From Promethearchaeota archaeon (GTDB taxonomy: Archaea > Asgardarchaeota > Lokiarchaeia > Sigyniarchaeales > SOKP01): DNA of 14,042 nt. Location: the NCBI GenBank assembly GCA_048938025.1, contig JBHLMP010000064.1, forward strand, positions 2,851 to 16,892, written 5' to 3'. Made by a program: the position numbers and the translations under genes. The stretch's first letter is position 1; each line of letters opens with the position of its first letter. This document shows, piece after piece, positions 363 to 14,020 of the stretch. The notes under the pieces are model-generated. The model made no database searches. It was given only the letters and a program-made list of their open reading frames with translations, and had not been told where the DNA came from.

Positions 363-2558
363 CTAATGAAAAACAGCAACTTCAGTTAATTGTTCTAATT
401 TCATTAACTTCCGATTAATAAATACTCTAACTTTTTCTGAAGTTATTTTTGGATTATTTACAACAAGGTCTTTAACAAAAGCATGACATTTTTTCCCTAA
501 TTTCGCTAATAACCTATGGTTTTCATTTGTATCATCATAGATAGGGATTGGAAACATAAACGGTCGTTTATGAATATGTCTGGAACTTTTTATTAATTTT
601 ATATATTTTGATAAATTAGGAGCATTTAATATAGCTGATAAATAATAGGCTTCATTTTCAGATTCAGTTGAATAGTAATAATTTTCTGAACCAATGATAA
701 TTCTTTGTTTATTCTTGTTTATAACAGCTGCTTTAATATTGGAACCACTCGCATTGTATATAACAATATAACTTTTACTTTTGACTTGTTTTTTTAATTT
801 ATTCCAGTAATTTAGATTTTCATATAAAGTATTTATGCTACTTGTTTCTTTTTTATGGATTTGATAAAAATTGTTCATCTCCTTATAGAAACTCATAGCT
901 TTAGGATATTTCTGAAGATATTTTTGATCAAAATCAAAACTCTCATTGATAGGAAGAAACGCATTTTTTAATTGTTTTATGCAAAAAGGTACAAGGTCTC
1001 TATTTAAAAAGGTCCTATATCTAAAAATTTTCTCAATTTCTTTATTTTTAAAAGTAAATTTCCATCTACTTTTTGCCCTTGATAAAGTATCTAGGTCTGA
1101 AGATATTACGAGAAAGCCATTGTTTTTTTCATCTATTTGGAAAAAGACTAATGTCCGAGGGACTAAAGTAGCTCCTTGGAGAAACATATTTTTATATTTA
1201 CTATTTGATAGTTCGCTAATAATTTTTAGTTCTTTTTCAGGGAGTAATAATTTTGCGCCATCATTTTCGATTCTTAAGCTTGAATAATAAGTTTCTTTTA
1301 GATTTTCTAATTTATTATTGAAAAGTTTGGTTTTAATAGGATATTTCTCTGAAAGTGAGATATTACTATTCTTACCAATATATCTTGCTTTCAAGCAGAC
1401 ATGATTCACATTAAAGAAATAACTTTTTGGAAAATCCCAAATTTCTAGATTGTTAAAAATTGAAAAACTTCTAAATTTAAAGCAATGGTCTCCATTTAAA
1501 ACACTTTTAGTAATAACAAAAAATATTTTTCCGTTAATTTTTAAGAATTTCAAGGGAATAGCATAGAAGAATATGGCTGCTAGTTCTATATGTGTAATAT
1601 ATTGACTACGGGGTTTAATTCCCAGATTATTTGATAAACTCCTTATTTTATTTTGATAGGTTTTGCTATATATGTCTTTATAAGTTAACCAAGGAGGGTT
1701 GCCAATAATTAGATCAAAAGTATTATATAATTTCTTTATATCTACATTAATTTTTTTTTCATACTGTTCAGGAAATAGAGAATCTAATAAAAATATATTA
1801 ATTTTAAGTAATTTATTATCTTTTAGGTCAAAATATTCTAAAAACAATAAATATAGGTTAATTTTTGCAGTTAATGTTGCTAAAGGGTTTATATCAAAGC
1901 CATAGACTTTATTGATAGCCTCAATTTTTGAGGAATCTGGATTATTTGAATTAATAATACTAATTACAATATCTATCAGAAAACTCCCTGAACCACAGGA
2001 TGGATCCAATATTTTTAGACCAAATTCATAAAAATCATCGACCATTTTCTTAACAAGGTTAGGAAATGTATAGAATTCTCCTATTTTATGCCTTGTTAGC
2101 GTCAAAAAAATTTGTTGATAGAGACTTTGAAACAAATCTTCGCGAGCAAAATTAGTTTTTTCAATTATATAATAGATTTTTTCAAATATTAATCGATCAA
2201 AATTAGTCCAATTGAAATATTCAAACTCAAAAATATTTAAAGAATCTAAGTTATTGGATTTTATGAATTGGTAAATTTGTTCTGTATTCTTATTCTGTAT
2301 GATATATAATTTACTCAATAGTAAAATTTTTAAGATTAGGGCAAAATAGGAATGTTTTATAAATAATTTAGAATCTGTTTCTTCTCCGTAAAAGCTCTTA
2401 CAGAGTGATTCCCATACTTTTAATTTATTTTTGAATTTTTCTTCATTAATTTCTGCTTCTTTTTCAAGGAAATTCAATGAATCTTTAAAAATACTAGAAT
2501 TTAATCCAAAGGCGTTTAAAATATCTTTAGAGTTAATTATTTTTTCTTCCTCTCTCAA
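363..2558 (-). CDS. N6-adenine DNA methyltransferase, gamma class (Eco57I/type IIG-like MTase plus target-recognition region); no obvious nuclease domain
   Basis: 731 aa with a TTG start. Motifs GEFYTFP (motif X), ILDPSCGSGSFL (SAM-binding motif I), YGFDINP and IIGNPPW (catalytic motif IV), followed by a long C-terminal TRD-like region. Confidence 0.88.
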   Translation of the reverse strand: MREEEKIINSKDILNAFGLNSSIFKDSLNFLEKEAEINEEKFKNKLKVWESLCKSFYGEETDSKLFIKHSYFALILKILLLSKLYIIQNKNTEQIYQFIKSNNLDSLNIFEFEYFNWTNFDRLIFEKIYYIIEKTNFAREDLFQSLYQQIFLTLTRHKIGEFYTFPNLVKKMVDDFYEFGLKILDPSCGSGSFLIDIVISIINSNNPDSSKIEAINKVYGFDINPLATLTAKINLYLLFLEYFDLKDNKLLKINIFLLDSLFPEQYEKKINVDIKKLYNTFDLIIGNPPWLTYKDIYSKTYQNKIRSLSNNLGIKPRSQYITHIELAAIFFYAIPLKFLKINGKIFFVITKSVLNGDHCFKFRSFSIFNNLEIWDFPKSYFFNVNHVCLKARYIGKNSNISLSEKYPIKTKLFNNKLENLKETYYSSLRIENDGAKLLLPEKELKIISELSNSKYKNMFLQGATLVPRTLVFFQIDEKNNGFLVISSDLDTLSRAKSRWKFTFKNKEIEKIFRYRTFLNRDLVPFCIKQLKNAFLPINESFDFDQKYLQKYPKAMSFYKEMNNFYQIHKKETSSINTLYENLNYWNKLKKQVKSKSYIVIYNASGSNIKAAVINKNKQRIIIGSENYYYSTESENEAYYLSAILNAPNLSKYIKLIKSSRHIHKRPFMFPIPIYDDTNENHRLLAKLGKKCHAFVKDLVVNNPKITSEKVRVFINRKLMKLEQLTEVAVFH

Positions 2559-2595: not shown

Positions 2596-3135
2596 TTATT
2601 TACCTCTCATAAATGAAGGGAGCATTAAACTAAAAATTTCAGCAATTTGTCTTAACTTTGATGTCTCCTTTACCATTGTAACAATTAAGATTGATCTTTC
2701 TAGTTCCTCTTTATCCAAAGACCCTCCTGCATAAATAGCTAATTCTGTATTAAATACTAATAAGTATTTCACATTTGGATTATTTATTATGTTTATTCCC
2801 GGTGTAGCTTTAAGCTCATCATAGTATTCATGATACTCTTTTGGAATTCCTCCTCTATCATTAGTTATTATTAATATAGGTATTCCTCTCTGCACAACTT
2901 TCTTTAACTCTGTAGTATAAAATTTTCCAACTTTGGGAGACACAATATTTAATTGTTCTTTTGTTTCCTGAATTAAATTAATTAGTTGATCATTTAATAG
3001 ATTTTTCTTACTTAAACCCCCTGATGTTTCTAAGCTAATCATTCCTACTAATGATAAAACTTTCTCTTCCAAACTTAACACTTGGTCTTTAAGGCGTTTA
3101 TTTTCAACTCGAAGTTCTATTAATCTATCTGACAA
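2596..3135 (-). CDS. Short N-terminal coiled coil plus PLD-like (phospholipase D/nuclease fold) domain lacking the HKD motif
   Basis: 179 aa with a TTG start. The pattern LINLIQETKEQLNIVSP...VQRGIPILIITND...LLVFNTELAIYAGGSL follows PLD-fold/TrmB-like secondary-structure signatures. No HxK motif; the only His is residue 102. Heptad-like N-terminus. Confidence 0.6.
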   Translation of the reverse strand: MSDRLIELRVENKRLKDQVLSLEEKVLSLVGMISLETSGGLSKKNLLNDQLINLIQETKEQLNIVSPKVGKFYTTELKKVVQRGIPILIITNDRGGIPKEYHEYYDELKATPGINIINNPNVKYLLVFNTELAIYAGGSLDKEELERSILIVTMVKETSKLRQIAEIFSLMLPSFMRGK

Positions 3136-3170: not shown

Positions 3171-3235
3171 AAATAATCTAAATTAAATTTATATAAATAT
3201 TTGTTAAAAAAACTTCAATTCTCTTAAGTTAAGAT

Positions 3236-5821
3236 TTAAAATACTAATCTTTTCCATGGCTTTCCAAACAAGATATAACTGGATAAAGCTAAGCTACTTT
3301 CTAAATCAATATGTTTACTTCCATCATCTGCGGTCAGATCTTTAAACTGTTGTTCAACAAGTTTCATCATTTTTTCAGAGATACATTGTTGTCGTGCTGT
3401 AAGAAGTGCTATTCCTTGGCTATCCCCTTTAATTAAATAAGTGAAAAAGTTTGCAATAATCTCATTTGCCTCATCATTAAAAATGGGGTAATTACGAGAA
3501 ATAATCCCCGTAATCCTATCATAATCAAATTGAGCGAGAATTTCTCCTAATTTCCTTAAAACATTTGTTAATTTTTTTCCCTCAACACTATAGATTTGAG
3601 CATTAAAAAATAAAAAAGGTTGTAAATTTGCTTTATTTTGGTTTATAAGTTTATTAATTTCATTTATTGTTATTATATTCCCATCATTCGTGATGAAAAA
3701 ACTATCTTTTGGGCTCCATTTAGAATAAAATATGTTTCCAACAAAAATTATGATATGATATGCTCCATCAGACATATGCGAGAGAATTGTTTCCCGAGTT
3801 GAAGCTGCTCCAATTAAATGAGTTATTTGATTTACTTCATCTCTCTCATTAAGAAAACTTATTATAAAGTTTAGCTCATTGGCTCCAGCTGGAAATGGAA
3901 AAATCAGTTCCTTATTTTTAGTATCTTCATTCCAACTTTTTGGACCCATTGAATTTATAGCTTCAATGATTAATACATTATAAATATTTTGAGAGGGTTC
4001 GGATTCTGGCTCTTCTTGACTAATTTGTTCAAAAGCGATGCCACCTAAAGGTGTTTCGCCAATTTTATAACCTGTTGAATATTTTAACAAGAAAAAATTA
4101 TTATCATATATTAAATCAAAAGGAATAGTCATATTATCCAATATAAAGTATATTTGAGGTACTAAATTCAAACTTTCAATTTTGAACGATTTAAAAAAAT
4201 CTCTAACTAATTTAGGTAAAAAAATATAAAACAATTGACCATATTCTGTTAAATTAAAAAAATATTTCTTATGTTCTGATTCAGAAAACAGTTTATTAAA
4301 TATTTCGAGAATTTGAGTATCATTCCAAAATTCGGTAACTATTGATCCCTCAACAATTTGATTATCTAATGATATCATCCGATATGAGATAATACCTTTA
4401 GAGTTTATTCTTATGATTATCTGTTTTATAACAAAACCTTGTAGATATACTGGATTAATTTCATCTTCAAATGAATAGATCTGATTTTTTAAAGGTTCAG
4501 ATTCATTATACAATGTATTTAAATTGGTGATAAGTTTAATAAATTTTTCATCTAAATGAAGGAGAATTTTTTGAGCAAGATTATAATTTTTTTCTTCAAA
4601 TAATGCACGATAGAACATCATTCTCCAGAAATCGCGTTGTTCTAAAGAAAAGAACATTGATTTAAATTTCCAAAGTAGATTACATGTATAGAAATAATGA
4701 AAAATTTGAGCACTTGTTTGAGGCGTCTTTAAATGAATATTCAATTTTTCTAAAGACTGAAGTAAATATCGCTTTTCCTTCATATCAACGAATTTTTTGC
4801 AAGCTTCGACCCAAAGCTCAATTAATATGTTATCATAAGAAAGATCTGTTTGAAATATAAATAAATCTTCCAAAAAATCATATATTTCATAAGCAATTTC
4901 AAACCGATTCCTATTTATTGAAAAATCAATATATTTTCGAATATAAGTGACAGCATCTCCAAATGATTGATATTCCTGAATTTTGTAAAATATATTTCTT
5001 ATAATTATCATGACCCACAGATATTCACCAATATCGTTTAAATAATATATAAGCTCTTCGAGATCAACTAAAATAGTATTAAAGCTTCTTTCATTAATAG
5101 AGATCCTACTTATATTATTAAATTCATTTTTCAAATATCCTGGAAGGCGATTAATCAGTATCTTGTTTATAATCTTAACAAATTCAGCTGAATCCTCCAT
5201 TAGTTGATATTTTAAACAAATGTTTTCTAAAAAGAAATATAAAAATAAAGGTCTTTTTGCTGGTTCTAATTTATATAAGGTACGACCTAAAATTTCCATA
5301 CTTAGATGAAAATATTCCGAAGGGATAACAGATTTTCTTAAAAACATTAATAGAATTTGTAATTCTATTAATTTGAGAGACTCTTCTCTTTCTTTTAGTT
5401 TTATTGAAAAAGAATTAATAAATTTTGTAATTCCTACTTGAGATACATCTTCCAAATTAATAAATGTCTTAAGTAAGTTTGTATAGAAGCTATCAAACAA
5501 GTAAAAATCATTCAGTTTAGATAAAAATGAGAAAAATCTTTTATAAGCGTCAATATATCTTATTAAATCAATATCTACTTGTTCCTCGTCTTTCTTTATA
5601 AGTGAATTTAAGTATATCCACCATGAATTTGATATTACCATTACCAACTGATGCCTTTTTTGAATATCTAACCATTCTGTCTTTTCAATTTCAAAATATA
5701 AATCAGTTAATAAACGATCAGCCCACACATGATTCGCTGATTGAAGTAACCTGCGTCCTTGGATAATATTCTTTTGAAAATTCTCTAAAAATTCTTTTTT
5801 GACAATTAAACTTACAGACAT
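3236..5821 (-). CDS. Large helical (solenoid-like) protein with a C-terminal CHAT/caspase-fold domain, predicted catalytically inactive
   Basis: 861 aa. The C-terminal ~400 aa carry CHAT-like motifs: IPFDLIYD, YHIIIFVGN, FLFFNAQ, GIISRNYPIFNDEA, G.ALLTARQ and SYILFGKP. The N-terminal half looks all-alpha. Confidence 0.72.
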   Translation of the reverse strand: MSVSLIVKKEFLENFQKNIIQGRRLLQSANHVWADRLLTDLYFEIEKTEWLDIQKRHQLVMVISNSWWIYLNSLIKKDEEQVDIDLIRYIDAYKRFFSFLSKLNDFYLFDSFYTNLLKTFINLEDVSQVGITKFINSFSIKLKEREESLKLIELQILLMFLRKSVIPSEYFHLSMEILGRTLYKLEPAKRPLFLYFFLENICLKYQLMEDSAEFVKIINKILINRLPGYLKNEFNNISRISINERSFNTILVDLEELIYYLNDIGEYLWVMIIIRNIFYKIQEYQSFGDAVTYIRKYIDFSINRNRFEIAYEIYDFLEDLFIFQTDLSYDNILIELWVEACKKFVDMKEKRYLLQSLEKLNIHLKTPQTSAQIFHYFYTCNLLWKFKSMFFSLEQRDFWRMMFYRALFEEKNYNLAQKILLHLDEKFIKLITNLNTLYNESEPLKNQIYSFEDEINPVYLQGFVIKQIIIRINSKGIISYRMISLDNQIVEGSIVTEFWNDTQILEIFNKLFSESEHKKYFFNLTEYGQLFYIFLPKLVRDFFKSFKIESLNLVPQIYFILDNMTIPFDLIYDNNFFLLKYSTGYKIGETPLGGIAFEQISQEEPESEPSQNIYNVLIIEAINSMGPKSWNEDTKNKELIFPFPAGANELNFIISFLNERDEVNQITHLIGAASTRETILSHMSDGAYHIIIFVGNIFYSKWSPKDSFFITNDGNIITINEINKLINQNKANLQPFLFFNAQIYSVEGKKLTNVLRKLGEILAQFDYDRITGIISRNYPIFNDEANEIIANFFTYLIKGDSQGIALLTARQQCISEKMMKLVEQQFKDLTADDGSKHIDLESSLALSSYILFGKPWKRLVF

Positions 5822-5846
5822 ATCTATAATTTTCAGCTTTATATTT

Positions 5847-7046
5847 CTAATTTGGATTTTGATTATTCTTTTCTAAATTTTGTCCTTTTAATGTTTTAAA
5901 GGTTGGATTATTCTCCCAACCCTTTTTCAATTTCCCTTGAGAATATAAAATACTCCCCCCGATCCAGCCCATATTTTCTCTACCAGAAACTGCTGTTACT
6001 TTAATCTTGTCTTTTATCTTAGTTGAAAAGTAATTTGAGAGGTCTAATTCTAATCTTTTATCTAATCCTGAAACTAGACTTCCTCCTCCAGAAAGAATGA
6101 TATTTGGTACTAATTCTTCCCAATTCTCTCGATCCCATGTCTTTATGACTTTTGCTATTGTTTCTCCTAAACCATTATAATCTATATGAATTAATGTTGG
6201 ATCAAATATGGGTTCAATAAGCATAAATCTTTCAAAATTGATTTCTAAATTGGAACCATCTGGTAAATTTACACTTCTATTATACATTGTCAACCCTGCT
6301 TTTACTCGTTTCATCTCTTCAATAGGATCAAGAACACATAATGATAATCTTTCTTTGATCTCTTTAGCTGTCATATAATCAAGATAAATAGCTGTTTCAG
6401 AACTCTTTTTAGTTAAAATCATGTTAAGAAGATGATTTGTTAAATCTTTGCCTGAAATTGGAAAAATGTCCCTTGCCATTACATTTGTAAATCCATGAAA
6501 AATTGTTGAAATATATGTATTTGATTCCCCCATATTTAAAACTACCCCACTTGTTTTTTGTAAGGTGGAAAGAATAGCTTGCGTTTCAGATAAAAATAAA
6601 ATAGATGGAAACCCAAAAATATCGAAAAAAGTTTCCTTTAGTTTTTTTTGTGTCAATTCAGGCATAAAAAAGGGAGTAATAATAATAATTGGTTGTTTGA
6701 ATCTGCATTCTTCAGATATTTCTAATTGTTGATAATAATAATAAAAGAATTTCGTAAGTATAGTAAAATTATTTTCTTTCTTAAACTCGTGAATTTTTAA
6801 AATATTTTGATACTTTAAGGCATCATTTCCGAATAAATGATTCTCGATATTTTCCTTATCAATAAAAATGTCTTCTAAACCATCAATAACATCAGATGTA
6901 AATAAATAATCATTAATATCCACATATACACTTGGAACAATAATATCGGGAAAGTCATCACCAGCCCATCCAAGACGAAATGTATTACTTCCAATATCAA
7001 TAATCAATGGACGTAATTGGTCATTGCTCTTAGATGACATATTCAT
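5847..7046 (-). CDS. Actin-related protein (divergent actin-family member, Asgard ARP type)
   Basis: 399 aa. Actin signatures: PLIIDIGSNTFRLGWAGDDFP (phosphate 1), GVVLNMGES (phosphate 2), ISGKDLT, KEIKERL, LPDG, ERF..EPIFDP, NIILSGGGS and WIGGSIL. The start could be Met1 (7046) or Met3 (7040). Confidence 0.93.
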   Translation of the reverse strand: MNMSSKSNDQLRPLIIDIGSNTFRLGWAGDDFPDIIVPSVYVDINDYLFTSDVIDGLEDIFIDKENIENHLFGNDALKYQNILKIHEFKKENNFTILTKFFYYYYQQLEISEECRFKQPIIIITPFFMPELTQKKLKETFFDIFGFPSILFLSETQAILSTLQKTSGVVLNMGESNTYISTIFHGFTNVMARDIFPISGKDLTNHLLNMILTKKSSETAIYLDYMTAKEIKERLSLCVLDPIEEMKRVKAGLTMYNRSVNLPDGSNLEINFERFMLIEPIFDPTLIHIDYNGLGETIAKVIKTWDRENWEELVPNIILSGGGSLVSGLDKRLELDLSNYFSTKIKDKIKVTAVSGRENMGWIGGSILYSQGKLKKGWENNPTFKTLKGQNLEKNNQNPN

Positions 7047-7879: not shown

Positions 7880-8287
7880 TTAATCTAATGGAAGAACTTC
7901 TACATTAAGTGCTTCTCCTTTTTCTATTAACTTCTCTCGTAGTTCCTCCAAAGTAATTCCTTTTGGAGTGGGACTAATCACAGTCCAAATCGCTGTTTTA
8001 TCCTTCTCTACAATTGCAGACTCACCATATATTAAAGAAATCCTCATCTCTCCAAAAGTTGTAGCAATTTTAGCTAAAGCTCCTGGGATATCCTCCATAG
8101 TGATCCTGAATTTTATTGGCTTCTCTTCCTCTGAAATACCTACTGGTGTTATTTTTATCTCTTTAGTTTCTGAATCACTTACCAACATCAGTTGAGTATT
8201 AGTAGTTAATCCCAAGCTTTTACGTGTAACTAAAGGGATGACAATTCTACCACGATTGTCAATAGTAATAATTTTAACGTCTTTCAT
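7880..8287 (-). CDS. AbrB/MazE/SpoVT-family DNA-binding domain fused to an ACT domain (putative ligand-responsive transcription regulator)
   Basis: N-terminal ITIDNRGRIVIP...RKSLGL is the swapped-hairpin signature. C-terminal ITMEDIPGALAKIATTFGEMRISL is the ACT signature (D.PG.LA.I). Confidence 0.88.
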   Translation of the reverse strand: MKDVKIITIDNRGRIVIPLVTRKSLGLTTNTQLMLVSDSETKEIKITPVGISEEEKPIKFRITMEDIPGALAKIATTFGEMRISLIYGESAIVEKDKTAIWTVISPTPKGITLEELREKLIEKGEALNVEVLPLD

Positions 8288-8501: not shown

Positions 8502-10652
8502 TTATAACTCTCCTTTATGAGCTTTAAGTTTAACTGTTAGATCCCTAGCTCGCTTTGAATACCATATTAACAACTCACCAGCATCTTCAGGTTTGAAATA
8601 TTCACCTCCACATAAAGCAGCAGCTCGACTCATCAATTCATCATCTGGGTTACCCATACCAACAAGATATACAACAATATTTGGGTTGTCTGCCAATTTC
8701 TTAATTTCATTGAAAAAAGCATCGCCATCCGTTGGTACGCCGTCTGTAAGGAAGACTATCATCGTTGGTTGATCTGGACTTAATCTATCAAATTCTGCTA
8801 ATACCTGCTGTGCTGAAAGCATTGCAGGGCCCATATTAGTAGCTTGTCCATAGGCATTACCAATCCTATCAACAATTAACCTTGCAGCCTCTTCAAGAAC
8901 TCCTTTTTTACCACTTGCAGAATCCATATAGAAGGAATTTCCGAAAGGGAGTATTTGTGCTTCATCGGCGAAGCGGATTACAGAGACTTTTTCCCCAAAG
9001 CCTCTTCCAACCTTTTCACTTAAGAAAAGGACTGCTGCAAATGCTGCAGATATCCTACGAGGTATGTAAATACCATCTTTGAAGTGTTTTAAAAATTCTT
9101 GAATTTCTCTAGATTCCATAGCTGCTTTTATCCCCTCAATAGCGGGAGCAATATTGGTAACAAAGACATCGCGTGCCATCATTGACCGGCTGATATCAAT
9201 TATCAAAATAGCGTTAAAGGGGATCAATCCAGTTGGACTTAAACTCAATGCTGTATTTTCTGTTACCTTAGCAAAAATATCTCCAGTTAGATCAGGAACA
9301 GTTTTTAGAATTGAACAAGCAATATTTACTGCAGACCATCTGAGTTTAATACCCTTGAAAATAATATAATTAGAGATCCAGCCTTTTAAGGATGCTACAT
9401 TTTGTCGAGCGGTACTTATAATTTCCCACATATTTTCACCAGAAATCGGGGAAATTCCAAGCGAAATATTTTGTAAAGGGATAATAGCTCTTTGATTCTT
9501 TGAAACTTTAACCTCAAAACTCCCGATACCCGATGCTTCGAGAATTTCGCTATCGATAATAATTGTATTATCTGCCACTGATTCTAAGATTTCAACTTTA
9601 CCAGCTCCGATCGCTCCTGTTAACTCATCTTCAAATGCTAAAATATCATTTTGCATTATTGAAAGTGTATATTGAGTTCTCGGGCTAATTAGCGCATGTC
9701 CCATCAAATTAGGTTGTGATTGAACCTCTAGCATTATTTCTGAAGCTTTTTGTATTGGAGGTTCCGTAGAATAGACAACAATTTGTTGTGAGTGTACATT
9801 TGTATCTTCTTTAGTATCATTACTCATTTTAATTTGAGTATCTAAAATGTTTGCGGCATCTATTCTTGCTGAGCCCATAGCTCGTGTTAACGGATCTTCC
9901 CATGCTATAAGCATTCCTTGTCCTAGACCTAATCGTTGAACAATGGAATGACTTAGTTGTATTCTTCCTCCTTCTATAGAATTATCAATAACTGGCGTTA
10001 AAATTATTCCATTTTTCTGACTTTGTAACATATTTACATCTATTCTATTTGGATATGGTTCTGCTGGAGCTGCGGGTTCTACTGACGGCTGTCCTATAGT
10101 TGGTTGAGTGAATTGATTAGGAGTTGGTTGAGGAGGAGGAGTTGGCAATGGGGATAATGATGGTTGAGGGGTGGGTGTAGGTAGAGGAGTTGGTTTAAAA
10201 TCAGATATTGGTGCTGGTTGTGGAGTTGATATGGGTTGGGGAACAGGAGCAGGTGTAGGTTGAGGGGATGGAGCTACACTAGGTGGTGGCGTAGGTAATG
10301 GAGATAAAGTAGATGGTTGGGAAGGTTGAGGTCTTGGAATTGGTTTTGGTGCTGGAACTTTTGGAATTTTTAACATAGGAGTAAGAGATGCTGCTGCACT
10401 TACTGGGCGAATCGCTAATTCAACTCCGCTAAATTGTAATTCATCAAGTACATTTTTGGCAACTTGCCCTGCAAAATCTAAAACCATATCAGATATCTCT
10501 ATAGTTGCAGTTTTCTTTAAGTTATTATCAGGATTTACAACTTCTATTGACCCCCCATTTTTAACTCCTAATTTATCGGCATTTGATTGACAGACTACAA
10601 CTTTATTTGTAATTTCTTCATTAACATCGACAAAAATTTTAATTTCTGGCAT
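8502..10652 (-). CDS. Multidomain protein: CDC48-N-like double-psi barrel, Pro-rich linker, two more barrel repeats, CDC48 domain-2-like segment, C-terminal VWA domain
   Basis: 716 aa. The VWA domain has an intact MIDAS (LIIDISRSM ... ATNMG ... VFLTDG ... LVGMG). Barrel-like repeats include RIQLSHSIVQRLGLGQG..EDPLT and ALISPRTQYTLSIMQND..EDELT. The segment ILKTVP...KVTENTALSL resembles the end of the CDC48 N-domain. No Walker A motif. Confidence 0.75.
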   Translation of the reverse strand: MPEIKIFVDVNEEITNKVVVCQSNADKLGVKNGGSIEVVNPDNNLKKTATIEISDMVLDFAGQVAKNVLDELQFSGVELAIRPVSAAASLTPMLKIPKVPAPKPIPRPQPSQPSTLSPLPTPPPSVAPSPQPTPAPVPQPISTPQPAPISDFKPTPLPTPTPQPSLSPLPTPPPQPTPNQFTQPTIGQPSVEPAAPAEPYPNRIDVNMLQSQKNGIILTPVIDNSIEGGRIQLSHSIVQRLGLGQGMLIAWEDPLTRAMGSARIDAANILDTQIKMSNDTKEDTNVHSQQIVVYSTEPPIQKASEIMLEVQSQPNLMGHALISPRTQYTLSIMQNDILAFEDELTGAIGAGKVEILESVADNTIIIDSEILEASGIGSFEVKVSKNQRAIIPLQNISLGISPISGENMWEIISTARQNVASLKGWISNYIIFKGIKLRWSAVNIACSILKTVPDLTGDIFAKVTENTALSLSPTGLIPFNAILIIDISRSMMARDVFVTNIAPAIEGIKAAMESREIQEFLKHFKDGIYIPRRISAAFAAVLFLSEKVGRGFGEKVSVIRFADEAQILPFGNSFYMDSASGKKGVLEEAARLIVDRIGNAYGQATNMGPAMLSAQQVLAEFDRLSPDQPTMIVFLTDGVPTDGDAFFNEIKKLADNPNIVVYLVGMGNPDDELMSRAAALCGGEYFKPEDAGELLIWYSKRARDLTVKLKAHKGEL
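10050..10379 (-). repeat. Pro/Thr/Gln/Ser-rich low-complexity coding segment with a duplicated LSPLPTPPP motif (10281-10307 and 10131-10157)
   Basis: Residues ~92-201 of the 716-aa ORF. The two 9-aa copies are 150 nt apart and differ only at synonymous positions. Confidence 0.9.
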
Positions 10653-10842
10653 GATAAAATCTCAAATTTATTTTTACATTATCTATAAATTAATATATTT
10701 ATCTTTTTTAAAATAAGTGTTTTTATAATAACACAATAATGGGGATTTAACTTGAAAATCATAATTAATTCTAAAATTTTAATTCCTAACAGATATTCTA
10801 CTAAAATTTTTTTTAATGATCTTTTTAATAAAGGTTAAAAAA

Positions 10843-11244
10843 TTATGACATTGGATATCGTTTAGCGATCTCTCCTGCATAATACCTGAATACCGTTACA
10901 ACTTTCCCCAAATCGGCAGTTTGTCTTGAAGCACCCATGAGAAAGAATCTTCCGGCAGCTGAGAGAATTATAAATCCATTTTCTCCTCTCAATACTACTT
11001 CAAGCATGTGAGTGTATCCAAGAGAATTAACTGCGTCATAGCCGGATTGCATAACTACAGCACTAAGGCTTGAAAATAAATCAGGATCTATGTTATACCC
11101 CGAAACACATGAAAATGCTAAGCGTAAACCTTCACGAGTCACCAAAGCTAGGGCTTCTAACTCTGTGTATTCAGTTATACTACCTAAAAACTTACTTAAA
11201 CTTTGAGCTTCTTGGGGTGATAAATCGGACAATTTTGGCTGCAA
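10843..11244 (-). CDS. Roadblock/LC7 (MglB-like) domain protein
   Basis: 133 aa. Pattern LEALALVTREGL...DPDLFSSLSAVVM...LG...LEVVLRGENGFIIL...ADLG is typical of Roadblock/LC7. TTG start; an in-frame CTG lies immediately upstream. Confidence 0.9.
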   Translation of the reverse strand: MQPKLSDLSPQEAQSLSKFLGSITEYTELEALALVTREGLRLAFSCVSGYNIDPDLFSSLSAVVMQSGYDAVNSLGYTHMLEVVLRGENGFIILSAAGRFFLMGASRQTADLGKVVTVFRYYAGEIAKRYPMS

Positions 11245-11282
11245 CAGTTATTTTTAATTCAATTAATAAATATAAAGTGTTT

Positions 11283-11319
11283 TAGGTTTAAAAATTTATA
11301 TCTCAAATTTTAAATCCTA
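11283..11319. repeat. Imperfect inverted repeat TAGGTTTAAAAATTT-N7-AAATTTTAAATCCTA upstream of the Roadblock gene
   Basis: 13 of 15 arm positions are complementary. It lies just upstream of a TATA-like TTTATATT (11269-11276, minus strand). Confidence 0.5.
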
Positions 11320-11462
11320 GTTATATTTTAAAGTTTAGTTGCGGTTTTCTCAATTTAGTTGAAGTATCAATTAAAAGAAAGTGAGTTTAGGATTTTGCTT
11401 TTTATAATTAGTTATTTTAAAAAGATTTAATAAGAAAATAGAAGCTGGAAAGGATAATGTTT

Positions 11463-12308
11463 CTACTTTCCACCAAGTTGTTCTTTAATTTGTTCTTTTA
11501 AAAGTTCTCTTTTATCCTTTGATTGTACTGGTTTTATTAGTGTGCCAGCGCGTTTTAAAAATTCAATAGCAATTATTTTTCCGTTTTCTGACAAAATGCG
11601 AGGTGAATAGTCCTCAGCAAAAAAGATACCTTCTGGAATAGACCCTACTTTTGATATCTCTTTTGTAACTTCTTTCTTACCTAAAAATTGTTGAACCCTT
11701 TCTACAACTGAATATGCTTGATTTCCAATAATAATAAGTTCTCTTTCAAAACCAGCAGGTATCTGAATTTCTTCTAGTCTTTTCATAACACCTTGAAAAT
11801 CTACTTGGCTTTCATCTCGCATAAGAGCTACCATGGAACCTTCTCCAGTATAGAGAGGTCCTCTATTTATAGCAGCACGCTCTTTGCTTCCTGCTATATT
11901 CATCCCTTCAGCTGGTCTTGGAGTACCAAAAATATTTTTTTCCCTTAAAGGATGCACCACAGGAGCGGATGCTTGCGTGACTGGTTCAGCTTTAATCTCT
12001 TTTGCATGACCTGCTACTGTCTTTCCACCAATCAATCGTATAAATTCTGGTTCTTCTTCACCCTCATCAAGCGGAACTACAGCATAATGTAACCCTACTT
12101 GTCCTCTGATTTCTTGGCTTCGTTTAGCTCCAATGAATTTAGATCTAACGCTACTACTTATTCCTTTCCAGAGATATACTTTTCTTACTTCATCAGCAAC
12201 TATAACATAGCATTCACTAGTTTCTAAAACGTCTTTTATCGGTTCTTCAGAAATAATTTCAGTAGTTGTACCATCGGGTCTGATTAAAAACACTTGAAGT
12301 CCAACCAA
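11463..12308 (-). CDS. Gelsolin-like domain protein (single N-terminal gelsolin domain, linker, unidentified C-terminal domain)
   Basis: Residues ~1-95 contain ECYVIV...KVYLWKG..SS...KFIGA...LDEGEEEPEFIRLIG, matching the gelsolin-repeat consensus (vyvWvG..s....k..a ... v.eG.E..eF). TTG start with a GAGGT RBS. Confidence 0.85.
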   Translation of the reverse strand: MVGLQVFLIRPDGTTTEIISEEPIKDVLETSECYVIVADEVRKVYLWKGISSSVRSKFIGAKRSQEIRGQVGLHYAVVPLDEGEEEPEFIRLIGGKTVAGHAKEIKAEPVTQASAPVVHPLREKNIFGTPRPAEGMNIAGSKERAAINRGPLYTGEGSMVALMRDESQVDFQGVMKRLEEIQIPAGFERELIIIGNQAYSVVERVQQFLGKKEVTKEISKVGSIPEGIFFAEDYSPRILSENGKIIAIEFLKRAGTLIKPVQSKDKRELLKEQIKEQLGGK

Positions 12309-12448: not shown

Positions 12449-14020
12449 TTAAGAACTGATTATGCTATCGATTGCATCATTAATGTTAGCTATCATATCT
12501 GTTGTTGTAAAGCGATCTCCTAAATTTTTTTTGCAATATTCCCCTATATAACCATTAAGAAATGCTGCTGAACATGCTGATTCAAAAGGATCGTTATTTG
12601 TTGCTAGAAAGGAGGCACATAATCCTGCTAAAACATCGCCAGTTCCTCCAATTGACATTTCAGGGCAACCTGTTTTATTAATTTTTAGTTTTTTATTATT
12701 TGTGATATAATCATATGGACCTTTTACTAAAAAAGTAGTATTAAGCTTTTTTGCCAGAGCAAAAATCATATTTGCTCTTTCTTCTATTTTATCATAAGAT
12801 GGTAAATCCAAATTAGCCATTATTTTTAATTCCCCTTGATGAGGTGTTAAGATAGCTCTCTCACCTTTAATCAAATCAAGATGATTCTTAACTAATTTTA
12901 ATGCATCGGCATCAAGAACATAAGATTTTTGTTTCTCTTTTAAATACCCTAGTAGTTTTACTAATAATTCTTCTGTTTCTTTTTCTATGCCTAAACCTGG
13001 ACCAATTACTATTGTATTAGACCAATCTATTAGCTCTTTTATCTCTTCTAAGGCTTTTATGTTTAACCAATTTCCTGGATTAGTTCTAACAATCATATTT
13101 GGTGAATAACTTCTAATAACATTACCGATAACTTCTGGTACATAGGTTATTACTAAATCACATCCAAAATGAATTGCTGTTAGAGAAGCATAAGCTGGTG
13201 CTCCAGAATAATTTTTTGAACCGCCTATTATTAGGATTTTTCCAAATTGGCCTTTATAAGCATCTATCTTTCTTACTTTTAAGGTAGGGATTAGATCACC
13301 TCTTCCAACAAATAGTTTAGCTTCTTGGGGAATGCCTATTGATTTTTCTAGTATCTCTTTCATATATTCATTAGTTCTAGACATTCCGATTTTAGAACTA
13401 TGGAAGGTTATAACTAAATCTGCCTTTACAGCCTTATCAGTAACTTTTCCGGTACTTGGATCTAAGCCAGAAGGAACATCAATCGAAACAACTTTAAGTC
13501 TTTCCGGATCTTCTTTTTTAAGATCATTAATTAAATCTATTGTAGATGCAATAGGTTCCCTAATTTTTCCCTTAATCCCCGTTCCTAATAATCCATCTAC
13601 TAATAAACTATACTCTTTATCTTTTTTAATAGTATTATAAATTTTGTTTAAATCTTTAGAATCCCTAATAATTTCTATATCTATTGAATACGTAAGATTA
13701 TTAAAAATAATATTCCAATTTATTTGTGCCTCGTTAGTTCTTATATTATCAGGAGCTCCTATTAGAATTACTAAAGATCTATTACCGTAGGAAGATAAAT
13801 GTCTGGCTATACCAAAACCGTCACCTCCATTATTACCAGTTCCGCAAAAAATAGCTGCTTTCGAACTAGATCTTAAATAACCTCTGTTCATGACTTCACT
13901 TGCAAAAGCATAACCTGCACATTCCATTAAATAACTCTTTGGAATGCCTAACCATTCAGAGTTATTATCTAAAATTGCCATCTCTTCAGAAGTGATTTTT
14001 TCAGAATTAAATGGTTTCAT
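12449..14020 (-). CDS. nnr: Bifunctional NAD(P)H-hydrate epimerase / dehydratase (YjeF-N plus carbohydrate-kinase domain)
   Basis: Epimerase motifs LMECAG, CGTGNNGGDG, VDGLLGTG and SIDVPSG. Dehydratase motifs IIGGSKNYSGA, IGPGLG, LDADAL, LTPHQGE, LVKG and GGTGDVLAG. Confidence 0.96.
   Translation of the reverse strand: MKPFNSEKITSEEMAILDNNSEWLGIPKSYLMECAGYAFASEVMNRGYLRSSSKAAIFCGTGNNGGDGFGIARHLSSYGNRSLVILIGAPDNIRTNEAQINWNIIFNNLTYSIDIEIIRDSKDLNKIYNTIKKDKEYSLLVDGLLGTGIKGKIREPIASTIDLINDLKKEDPERLKVVSIDVPSGLDPSTGKVTDKAVKADLVITFHSSKIGMSRTNEYMKEILEKSIGIPQEAKLFVGRGDLIPTLKVRKIDAYKGQFGKILIIGGSKNYSGAPAYASLTAIHFGCDLVITYVPEVIGNVIRSYSPNMIVRTNPGNWLNIKALEEIKELIDWSNTIVIGPGLGIEKETEELLVKLLGYLKEKQKSYVLDADALKLVKNHLDLIKGERAILTPHQGELKIMANLDLPSYDKIEERANMIFALAKKLNTTFLVKGPYDYITNNKKLKINKTGCPEMSIGGTGDVLAGLCASFLATNNDPFESACSAAFLNGYIGEYCKKNLGDRFTTTDMIANINDAIDSIISS

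Follow-up and report, generated by a model that had tools for sequence, protein, structure and literature searches.

A conserved four-gene module in one order of Asgard archaea pairs a divergent actin paralogue with a predicted CHAT-fold pseudo-protease

We analysed a 14,042-base stretch of DNA from a Promethearchaeota archaeon of the order Sigyniarchaeales (contig JBHLMP010000064.1; G+C 25-39%), hereafter called the window. Its ten large open reading frames (ORFs) all lie on the minus strand. Four adjacent ones, named CC247, ARP399, CHAT861 and PLD179, constitute a conserved, vertically inherited four-gene module, the core of which is the pair of ARP399, a member of the actin family, and CHAT861, a helical protein with a predicted CHAT-like C-terminal part. 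The term actin-related protein (ARP) is used here for a divergent actin paralogue and does not denote an orthologue of a eukaryotic ARP. The genomic context of the module strongly supports a functional link among its proteins.

The CHAT861 locus was taken from 61 genomes, and the window proteins were mapped onto it by tblastn. These genomes belong to the families f1 (53), f2 (7) and f3 (1), where f1 to f4 denote the four sampled families of one order, the window's own. An ARP gene is located upstream of CHAT861 on the same strand in 59 of the 61 genomes, and both missing cases, G035 and G170, are short of flanking sequence, with only 270 and 562 nucleotides (nt) upstream, respectively. The tblastn matches of the two proteins are at most 147 nt apart in 58 of those 59 genomes. 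Of the 61 genomes, 58 have PLD179 downstream in the same orientation, the misses being G019 (168 nt of flank), G006 and G170. CC247 is present upstream of ARP, likewise on that strand, in 57; of the four genomes without it, three lack flank, and G215 reveals no match in the 279 nt available. The module is kept in f2 and f3, where the identity to the window proteins is down to 23-27% for CHAT861 and 28-33% for ARP. An earlier, sequence-only reading of this DNA had singled out the ARP-CHAT pair, proposed that its adjacency be followed across genomes and regarded the upstream coiled-coil gene as a possible third member. The adjacency and the place of CC247 bear this out, but the module extends further than that reading had it, since the fourth conserved member, PLD179 (2596-3135), lies outside the part it had delimited.

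Within the window, ARP399 and CHAT861 are separated by 25 nt and CC247 and ARP399 by 43 nt, in agreement with the sequence-only reading. The remaining gaps between ORFs amount to 37, 46, 100, 140, 190, 214 and 218 nt, such that 25 nt is indeed the minimum; all sizes are those of the ORFs as called, four of which have less certain TTG starts. Close spacing of the ARP-CHAT pair is not peculiar to the window genome, as related loci in which both ORFs could be called range from -4 nt (an overlap; L025, L028) to 87 nt (L064). In f2 and f3, the module genes overlap or are 1-5 nt apart. The ORF of ARP399 begins two codons (Met-Asn; window 7038-7046) before the start Met of its orthologues. Judged from the orthologues, the true start may be the third codon, a second ATG, and the gap between CC247 and ARP would then widen to 49 nt.

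A 1217-residue frame in L027 was considered as an ARP-CHAT fusion and rejected, as a TAA is present and a TTG start follows 3 nt later. In genome G265 (C28:217167-218327; L068), ARP and CHAT861 share a frame of 1256 residues with one TAG between them, which we take as an ordinary stop and not as a sign of fusion. Among 64 representative CHAT861 homologues, the longest of which has 911 residues, no ARP-CHAT fusion was found. Runs of seven T occur in the CHAT-to-PLD gap (3206-3212) and in the PLD-to-methyltransferase gap (2582-2588), and none occur in the CC-to-ARP and ARP-to-CHAT gaps. Oligo-T runs were dropped as archaeal terminator signals, since ten runs of six or seven T are also found within coding sequence of this 27% GC stretch.

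The distribution of both proteins was surveyed in 400 genomes of the phylum. Full-length CHAT861 was identified in 117 of 134 f1, 7 of 14 f2, 1 of 1 f3 and 0 of 4 f4 genomes; outside the order, the CHAT861 profile matches only the C-terminal part of proteins of other sizes, with at most 86 bits. Scores of the ARP-clade profile are bimodal, with full-length orthologues at 342-632 bits in f1, f2 and f3 only, contig-end fragments at 256-373 bits, one ambiguous f2 match at 241 bits, and matches outside the order at no more than 224 bits, where the dividing line was chosen after the distribution had been seen. Neither an ARP nor a CHAT861 orthologue was found in the four f4 genomes or in the 246 genomes outside the order.

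A cross-tabulation made by hand for the 134 f1 genomes gives 113 with both proteins, 15 with neither, four with CHAT861 only and two with ARP only. The six discordant cases are fragments or carry internal stops: the CHAT861 copies of G173, G174, G176 and G185 are pieces of 128-727 residues at contig ends or with internal stops, and the ARP matches of G199 and G204 start at contig base 2 or 6. The 15 f1 genomes with neither protein have a completeness of 61-99%, and seven of them reach at least 92%. In four genomes of the same genus that are devoid of CHAT861 and 92-98% complete, a direct search gave no ARP match exceeding 27% identity, and the best matches were Lokiactins. In f2, both proteins are clearly present in five genomes, fragmentary or ambiguous in two (G035, G170), and both are missing in seven. 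Since the genomes are related, these counts do not represent independent events; the joint absences are nonetheless spread over at least five genera of f1 and several of f2. ARP and CHAT861 share their distribution and appear to have been lost together. Their expected co-occurrence across Asgard genomes is thereby observed within one order, but it is not Asgard-wide and is confined to three of the four sampled families.

Adjacency alone might be no more than inherited gene order devoid of functional meaning, and most of the genomes are indeed f1 genomes, which also have the surrounding genes (vWA, Roadblock, gelsolin and methyltransferase) in common. However, the latter genes are limited to f1 loci and were not found in f2 or f3 loci, where none of the window's flanking genes was found except the AbrB-ACT gene at the f3 locus. 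In three f2 genera (L027, L028, L071), a Hef-type helicase-ERCC4-HhH gene (L027:1821-5141) and a PHP-domain gene are located upstream of the module instead, and a very hydrophobic polytopic membrane protein of 381-411 residues follows PLD179. This membrane protein matches no Pfam family, is 40-51% identical between the three genera, starts 27 nt after PLD179 in L027 (10165-11382), and was not found in the window genome when searched for with an f2 query. Thus the flanks are replaced between families while the order and orientation of the four-gene core are unchanged, and the joint absence of ARP and CHAT861 from 15 f1 and seven f2 genomes likewise speaks against mere synteny, which we regard as very improbable.

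ARP399 matches the Pfam family Actin (PF00022) with E 3.5e-47 and 161.4 bits (cut-off 27) over profile positions 2-391 of 410, and on this sequence match its assignment to the actin family is solid. It is the most divergent actin paralogue of the window genome and the lowest-scoring of its four actin-family matches (300, 299, 213 and 157 bits against Pfam Actin). Five related genomes contain the same set, composed of Lokiactin (413-445 bits), a paralogue of 373-385 residues, a paralogue of 500-560 residues, and the ARP of the cluster; one f2 genome without the module contains only Lokiactin and two other paralogues and no cluster ARP. This composition resembles that of 'Candidatus Lokiarchaeum ossiferum', for which the available part of PMC9834061 describes one Lokiactin and three further actin homologues, which group with ARPs and are each expressed at a lower level than Lokiactin; the genomes studied here hold Lokiactin, two paralogue groups and the cluster ARP, whereas that part of the paper gives the ARPs without partners or gene context.

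A maximum-likelihood tree was built from 36 actin sequences, namely 17 cluster ARPs from f1, f2 and f3, six Lokiactins, five and six members of the two other groups, and two additional paralogues of genome G038. Three fragments, one at a contig end in G000 and two in G026, were left out, and the tree has no outgroup and is unrooted. The cluster ARPs form a single clade (100/98 support) apart from Lokiactin and the two other paralogue groups. Their terminal branches measure 0.10-0.93 versus 0.017-0.042 in Lokiactin. ARP399 is not a Lokiactin, as it belongs to this separate clade and shares 25-27% identity with Lokiactins. In the PDB, conventional actins obtain the highest scores with the ARP-clade profile (183-199 bits), and the 60 best sequences include no eukaryotic ARP; Arp1 appears only in a single-sequence search, with about 118 bits versus 120-131 for actins. 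The two G038 sequences (L098:1360-3328 and L104:579-2580) are very divergent actin paralogues that group beside the cluster-ARP clade. Each overlaps an upstream gene for a protein of about 290 residues by a few bases; these two upstream proteins share 34% identity and are not related to CC247, and the two pairs may represent a second kind of ARP-plus-partner pair.

The nucleotide site of the cluster ARPs is altered. Where Lokiactin has D-N-G-T-G-I-S-K, the f1 ARPs have D-I-G-S-N-T-F-R, and at the site of D-I-G-D-G-V-S-H they have N-M-G-E-S-N-T-Y, with the changes being equivalents of D154N, D157E, G158S and H161Y. The f2 ARPs are altered more, with D-V-G-A-F-E-S-L in the first phosphate loop, D-I-G-Y-Y-S-T-R, and G-N-G-G. 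We take the altered positions to be the actin sites that bind phosphates and promote hydrolysis. ATPase activity is presumably weak or absent in these proteins, most clearly in f2.

CHAT861 itself matches Pfam CHAT (PF12770) with E 0.001 and 19.1 bits, which is under the cut-off of 24, and the CHAT call made by the sequence-only reading is weak for the window protein when judged by this score. The call is carried by the family matches and by the predicted fold. Among 20 diverse family members, ten match Pfam CHAT at E<=0.01 (best 4.9e-7), and a precomputed PF12770 match is present in 20 of 120 listed homologues. A full HMMER scan of 1.84 billion representative proteins retrieved 64 representative homologues at E<=0.001, with full-length ones of 833-911 residues; the gene is single-copy in the window genome. 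A PDB sequence search with the CHAT861 profile gave only two chance-level matches (E 0.016 and 0.1).

An AlphaFold2 model of CHAT861, built on a 20-sequence alignment, is confident (mean predicted local distance difference test score (pLDDT) 84.3, predicted template-modelling score (pTM) 0.74). It consists of an N-terminal all-helical TPR-like solenoid, in accordance with the earlier description of the protein as helical, a small beta unit at residues 465-494, and an alpha/beta C-terminal part. In a Foldseek search with this model, Csx29/TPR-CHAT ranks first (7zoq_A, E 1.6e-10), followed by separases (9hms_C, 5.1e-8; 5u1s_A), the CHAT-bearing anti-sigma factor DdvA, SAVED-CHAT and gingipain R. 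In VIA-align, residues 464-861 superpose on the separase protease domain (5fc2_B, Z 18.3, root-mean-square deviation (rmsd) 3.9 A over 286 residues; 5fby_A, Z 18.0; C. elegans 5mz6, Z 17.0) and on gingipain R (1cvr, Z 15.8, rmsd 4.3 A, 278 residues), and residues 612-861 on SAVED-CHAT (8tl0_C, Z 16.5, rmsd 3.2 A). Caspases and metacaspase range at Z 12-13 (metacaspase 4, 13.1; caspase-7, about 12.7). Over the whole chain, Csx29 is matched with Z 20.0 (8eex_B, 362 residues) at an rmsd of 16.6 A, within a whole-chain range of 14-18 A. According to the model, the C-terminal part has a clan CD caspase-like fold, and these matches indicate a combination of solenoid and two-lobed caspase-like unit as in Csx29 and separase.

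Both likenesses have their limits. Csx29, the TPR-CHAT protein of the type III-E CRISPR Craspase, likewise combines a TPR-like solenoid with a following CHAT domain and is the top whole-chain match, but CHAT861 is without the His-Cys dyad (see below), and its partner gene encodes an actin fold. A family scan of the ten window ORFs revealed no Cas family, CRISPR repeats not having been searched for. Separase, the eukaryotic C50 peptidase, combines a pseudo-protease lobe with a caspase-like lobe, and CHAT861 resembles it in having a helical N-terminal region and then a two-lobed unit that superposes on the protease domain. In contrast to separase, CHAT861 has lost the catalytic residues, comprises 861 residues versus more than 1,000, has no detectable sequence homology to it, and nothing ties it to cohesin or securin. 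As CHAT861 is confined to one archaeal order, the resemblance is no argument for separase ancestry.

A 1012-residue CHAT protein from another family of the same class (L074:1533-4571, genome G164; Pfam E 3.4e-22) has His and Cys intact in the motifs '...IHYAGHTVF...' and '...VYLNSCDAS...'. hhalign aligns the CHAT861 family to this protein with a probability of 99.2% and E 2.3e-19 over residues 131-825, and sets N696 (codon 3734-3736) under the His and Q742 (codon 3596-3598) under the Cys. We take these two positions to be the catalytic dyad of CHAT/caspase-like proteases. Within the CHAT861 family, the His position is occupied by N, S or Y and the Cys position by Q or R, and the dyad is absent in 20 of 20 aligned sequences. 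At the level of catalytic residues, this confirms the earlier call of a pseudo-protease: CHAT861 is to be regarded as catalytically dead and not as an active CHAT, separase or caspase protease. As the hhalign match covers most of the helical region, it suggests that the CHAT861 family descends from active helical-CHAT archaeal proteins, of which the L074 protein is a candidate active relative. No ARP gene was found within its 10-kb locus.

Pfam PLDc_2 matches 12 of 17 orthologues of PLD179 (best E 3.2e-6), and NucT is matched by profile with E 0.0015. The AlphaFold2 model (pLDDT 83.9) starts with a long helix of 28 residues (2-29), followed by a PLD fold, for which Foldseek reports NucT (6ehi, E 6e-8, TM 0.61/0.68), Nuc (1byr, TMt 0.72), Zucchini, PLD1/2, TrmBL2 (5bpd, E 2.4e-6), TrmB and human FAM83 DUF1669 (5qhm, E 6.7e-6; 5lzk). 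In all 17 orthologues, the catalytic His of the HxK(x)4D motif is replaced by Asn (N121) in N-P-N-V-K, where N119 and N121 are nearly invariant and P120 is invariant; the motif was assigned by visual inspection, and HMMER aligns the same stretch to NucT with an offset. The protein ends in an LPSFMR tail with invariant L172, P173, F175, M176 and R177 and at most two residues after it. PLD179 is predicted to adopt a PLD fold and, given its motif, to be catalytically dead. DUF1669 is a catalytically inactive PLD fold that serves as a protein anchor, and TrmB proteins have, like PLD179, a long helix before a PLD-like domain. The difference to TrmB and TrmBL2 is that PLD179 has no winged-helix DNA-binding domain, as its model starts with the helix, and that it has its own invariant LPSFMR tail.

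CC247 has a polybasic N-terminus (MGKKKKKTQKKGK), a poorly conserved and partly proline-rich middle (proline-rich in f2), and, at its C-terminal end, a conserved, presumably helical domain that spans some 115 residues (roughly residues 130-247). F136, Y148, W151, N172, T173, F194, K197, E202, Q226 and E229 are invariant in an alignment of 16 orthologues. There is no Pfam family above cut-off, no PDB match of the CC247 profile, and no usable match in the protein atlas; the label 'coiled coil' derives from weak matches to coiled-coil families. Two motif candidates were rejected. The C-terminal 'QLKKV' was considered as the LKKV motif of WH2, but it is short, not conserved in f2, and gives no WH2 match; 'WENSIS' as a forkhead helix is likewise short and not conserved in f2, and Forkhead matches are weak (five of 16 members, best E 4e-5). 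Of the f1 genomes whose upstream flank extends to 4.3 kb or more, 20 carry ACT135 upstream of CC247 and one (G190) does not; the only f3 genome carries it as well, and none of four f2 genomes with at least 6 kb of flank does. ACT135 is an uncertain member, which may be the first gene of the unit or may regulate it.

Defence systems typically include CHAT proteases, PLD nucleases and type IIG-like methyltransferases, and one could read the module as a decayed or unconventional defence island. Csx29 and SAVED-CHAT are among the closest folds of CHAT861, PLD179 resembles the nucleases NucT and Nuc, and MTase731, the product of the methyltransferase gene next to the module, matches PADLOC REase_MTase_IIG with E 2.9e-37, on model positions 603-1082 of 1100 only, i.e., the methyltransferase and C-terminal part. 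Most f1 genomes have an MTase731 homologue after PLD179, five of them with this gene on the opposite strand. The methyltransferase is absent, however, at f2 and f3 loci, ARP, CHAT861, PLD179 and ACT135 have no PADLOC match, and CC247 has only weak matches of the coiled-coil type. Moreover, the CHAT and PLD catalytic residues are absent in all members examined, and the module is single-copy and lineage-wide rather than patchy, with trees and identities that follow the family structure. We therefore give hardly any credence to a defence island.

Three module proteins have a recognisable enzyme fold (ARP, CHAT and PLD), and none of them retains intact chemistry. From the gene context, the explanation we favour, if somewhat short of probable, is that the four proteins are subunits of a single complex built around the ARP. 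The analysis shows gene order, co-occurrence, joint absence, predicted folds and the loss of catalytic residues; from these we infer that the genes are co-transcribed, that their products bind each other, that the ARP does not polymerise, and that Lokiactin or the membrane is acted upon. The four proteins would be made together and then assembled. ARP would be a slow or non-hydrolysing actin-fold subunit that forms no filaments of its own, and CHAT861 a separase/Csx29-like scaffold holding it, with the solenoid and the dead cleft binding proteins or peptides; among the analogues of such binding, securin occupies separase, and Csx29 docks on Cas7-11. PLD179, a dead PLD on a long helix, and CC247, with its basic tail and helical domain, would act as adaptors that attach the complex to an acidic surface, for which the membrane is the likeliest candidate. 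The complex would present an actin-like face to Lokiactin filaments and cap, nucleate or anchor them. A hint at a membrane location comes from the basic tail of CC247 and from the membrane protein attached to the module in f2. A cytoskeletal setting fits with the gelsolin and Roadblock neighbours in f1, although the conservation of these flanks ends with that family. Proteases of clan CD are selective for the residue that precedes the cleavage site, often Arg, and, speculatively, the invariant ...LPSFMR end of PLD179 might sit in the dead Arg-type pocket of CHAT861 like a bound cleavage product. Taken with all these parts, i.e., as a lineage-specific complex in which a non-polymerising ARP is clamped by a pseudo-protease and, with a pseudo-PLD and a basic adaptor, caps, nucleates or membrane-anchors Lokiactin, the proposal is tentative and, as a whole, rather unlikely.

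To our knowledge, every eukaryotic ARP works in a complex with dedicated non-actin subunits, often helical scaffolds. The module resembles Arp2/3, dynactin, and the INO80/SWR1 modules in that a divergent, fast-evolving actin paralogue is strictly linked to scaffold-like proteins. It differs in that its partners are not homologous to known subunits of ARP complexes and in that the complex is here a proposed one.

Several observations weigh against such a complex. The f1 ARPs retain D17, G19, S20, GGGS and, in most members, the Q of QA(I/V)LS, so that the f1 nucleotide site is largely retained and a filament-forming ATPase has to be considered. ARP399 would then polymerise by itself, and its three neighbours would be adaptors or regulators, as in bacterial actin-like operons in which the polymer gene lies beside an adaptor gene (ParM/ParR, AlfA/AlfB, MamK/MamJ). 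Besides the nucleotide-binding positions, most of which f1 ARPs keep, the complete actin fold, the operon-like layout with small adaptor-type proteins, and the basic tail of CC247, which could bind DNA or membrane cargo, are in agreement with this. On the other hand, several residues of the phosphate loops and the adenine site are gone from the ARP orthologues of f2, where the module is still kept, and by its terminal branches the clade evolves 5-40 times faster than Lokiactin, which would be unusual under the constraint of filament contacts. We consider a self-polymerising ARP399 improbable.

In addition, gene neighbourhood by itself is often a poor predictor of binding. The context evidence is equally compatible with a functional link and probable co-expression in the absence of a stable complex, in which case CHAT861, for example, would be a transient peptide-binding regulator or chaperone. 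Dead proteases are commonly binders or regulators, and the AbrB-ACT protein encoded upstream suggests regulated expression. Strict joint presence and absence, together with the overlapping or nearly abutting genes of f2 and f3, are more typical of subunits made in fixed proportion, and we consider a link of this looser kind as improbable as the self-polymerising ARP.

The module is furthermore restricted to one order and missing in about 10% of f1 and half of f2 genomes, and is thus dispensable. Its arrangement can also be broken, as two genomes illustrate. In G232, a 3.8-kb insertion with opposite-strand ORFs separates ARP and CHAT861 (L080:4785-8634; L041:1-1500). In G006 (L033), the CHAT861 match ends at about residue 782, and PLD179 and the methyltransferase were not found in the 7 kb downstream, which looks like a deletion or rearrangement breakpoint inside the CHAT861 gene. 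One ORF of the G232 insertion is leucine-rich-repeat-like by eye, and the rest of that module is intact.

The features of the window are listed in Table 1. Upstream of the module, the genes for the vWA, Roadblock/LC7 and gelsolin-like proteins form a block (8502-12308) that is conserved across f1 loci.

Table 1. Features of the 14,042-base window in the direction of transcription
Feature	Position	Strand	Remarks
NAD(P)HX repair fusion	12449-14020	-	First of the ten ORFs in transcription direction
Gelsolin-like protein	11463-12308	-	N-terminal domain similar to 'Lokiarchaeota gelsolin 2DGel' 7whg_G, E 8e-9
Roadblock/LC7 protein	10843-11244	-	
vWA protein	8502-10652	-	
ACT135, AbrB + ACT protein	7880-8287	-	Pfam ACT E 2.3e-6; NCBIfam AbrB-family domain
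CC247, basic helical protein of 247 residues	7090-7833	-	
ARP399, actin family, 399 residues, ATG start	5847-7046	-	Pfam Actin
Spacer of 25 nt, ARP stop (TAG) to CHAT861 ATG	5822-5846	-	No T-runs
CHAT861, 861 residues, ATG start	3236-5821	-	
CHAT861, predicted N-terminal all-helical TPR-like solenoid, residues 5-447	4481..5809	-	Helices H5-27 to H434-447
CHAT861, predicted two-lobed caspase/CHAT-like domain, residues 464-861	3239..4432	-	VIA-align matches
PLD179, 179 residues, predicted PLD fold	2596-3135	-	
N6-adenine methyltransferase (MTase731, 731 residues)	363-2558	-	

We know of no Asgard archaeal ARP that has a known partner or function. The sequence-only reading was not aware of a described ARP-CHAT pair, and our literature search likewise turned up no archaeal ARP described as linked to a CHAT- or separase-like protein, although other papers or supplements may still report one. 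The available parts of PMC13716822 and of bioRxiv 10.64898/2026.10.28.762692 make no mention of such a pair. Asgard ARPs are already known as a class, while the ARP module is apparently undescribed and represents an order-restricted candidate ARP complex.

These findings name three concrete candidate partners for one clade of Asgard ARPs, the first candidates for an archaeal ARP. Two of these candidates have an enzyme fold, one that of a separase/Csx29-like protease and the other that of a PLD, which would have been turned into a non-catalytic scaffold. The lead is well supported and testable, tempered by its restriction to one order and by a complex that is proposed from gene context. Since the module is confined to this order and has no eukaryotic orthologues, it bears on how actin paralogues recruit partners and not on the ancestry of a eukaryotic complex. 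If the proposal is true, it would represent an independent invention of a eukaryote-style rule, according to which ARPs work within dedicated multi-subunit machines.

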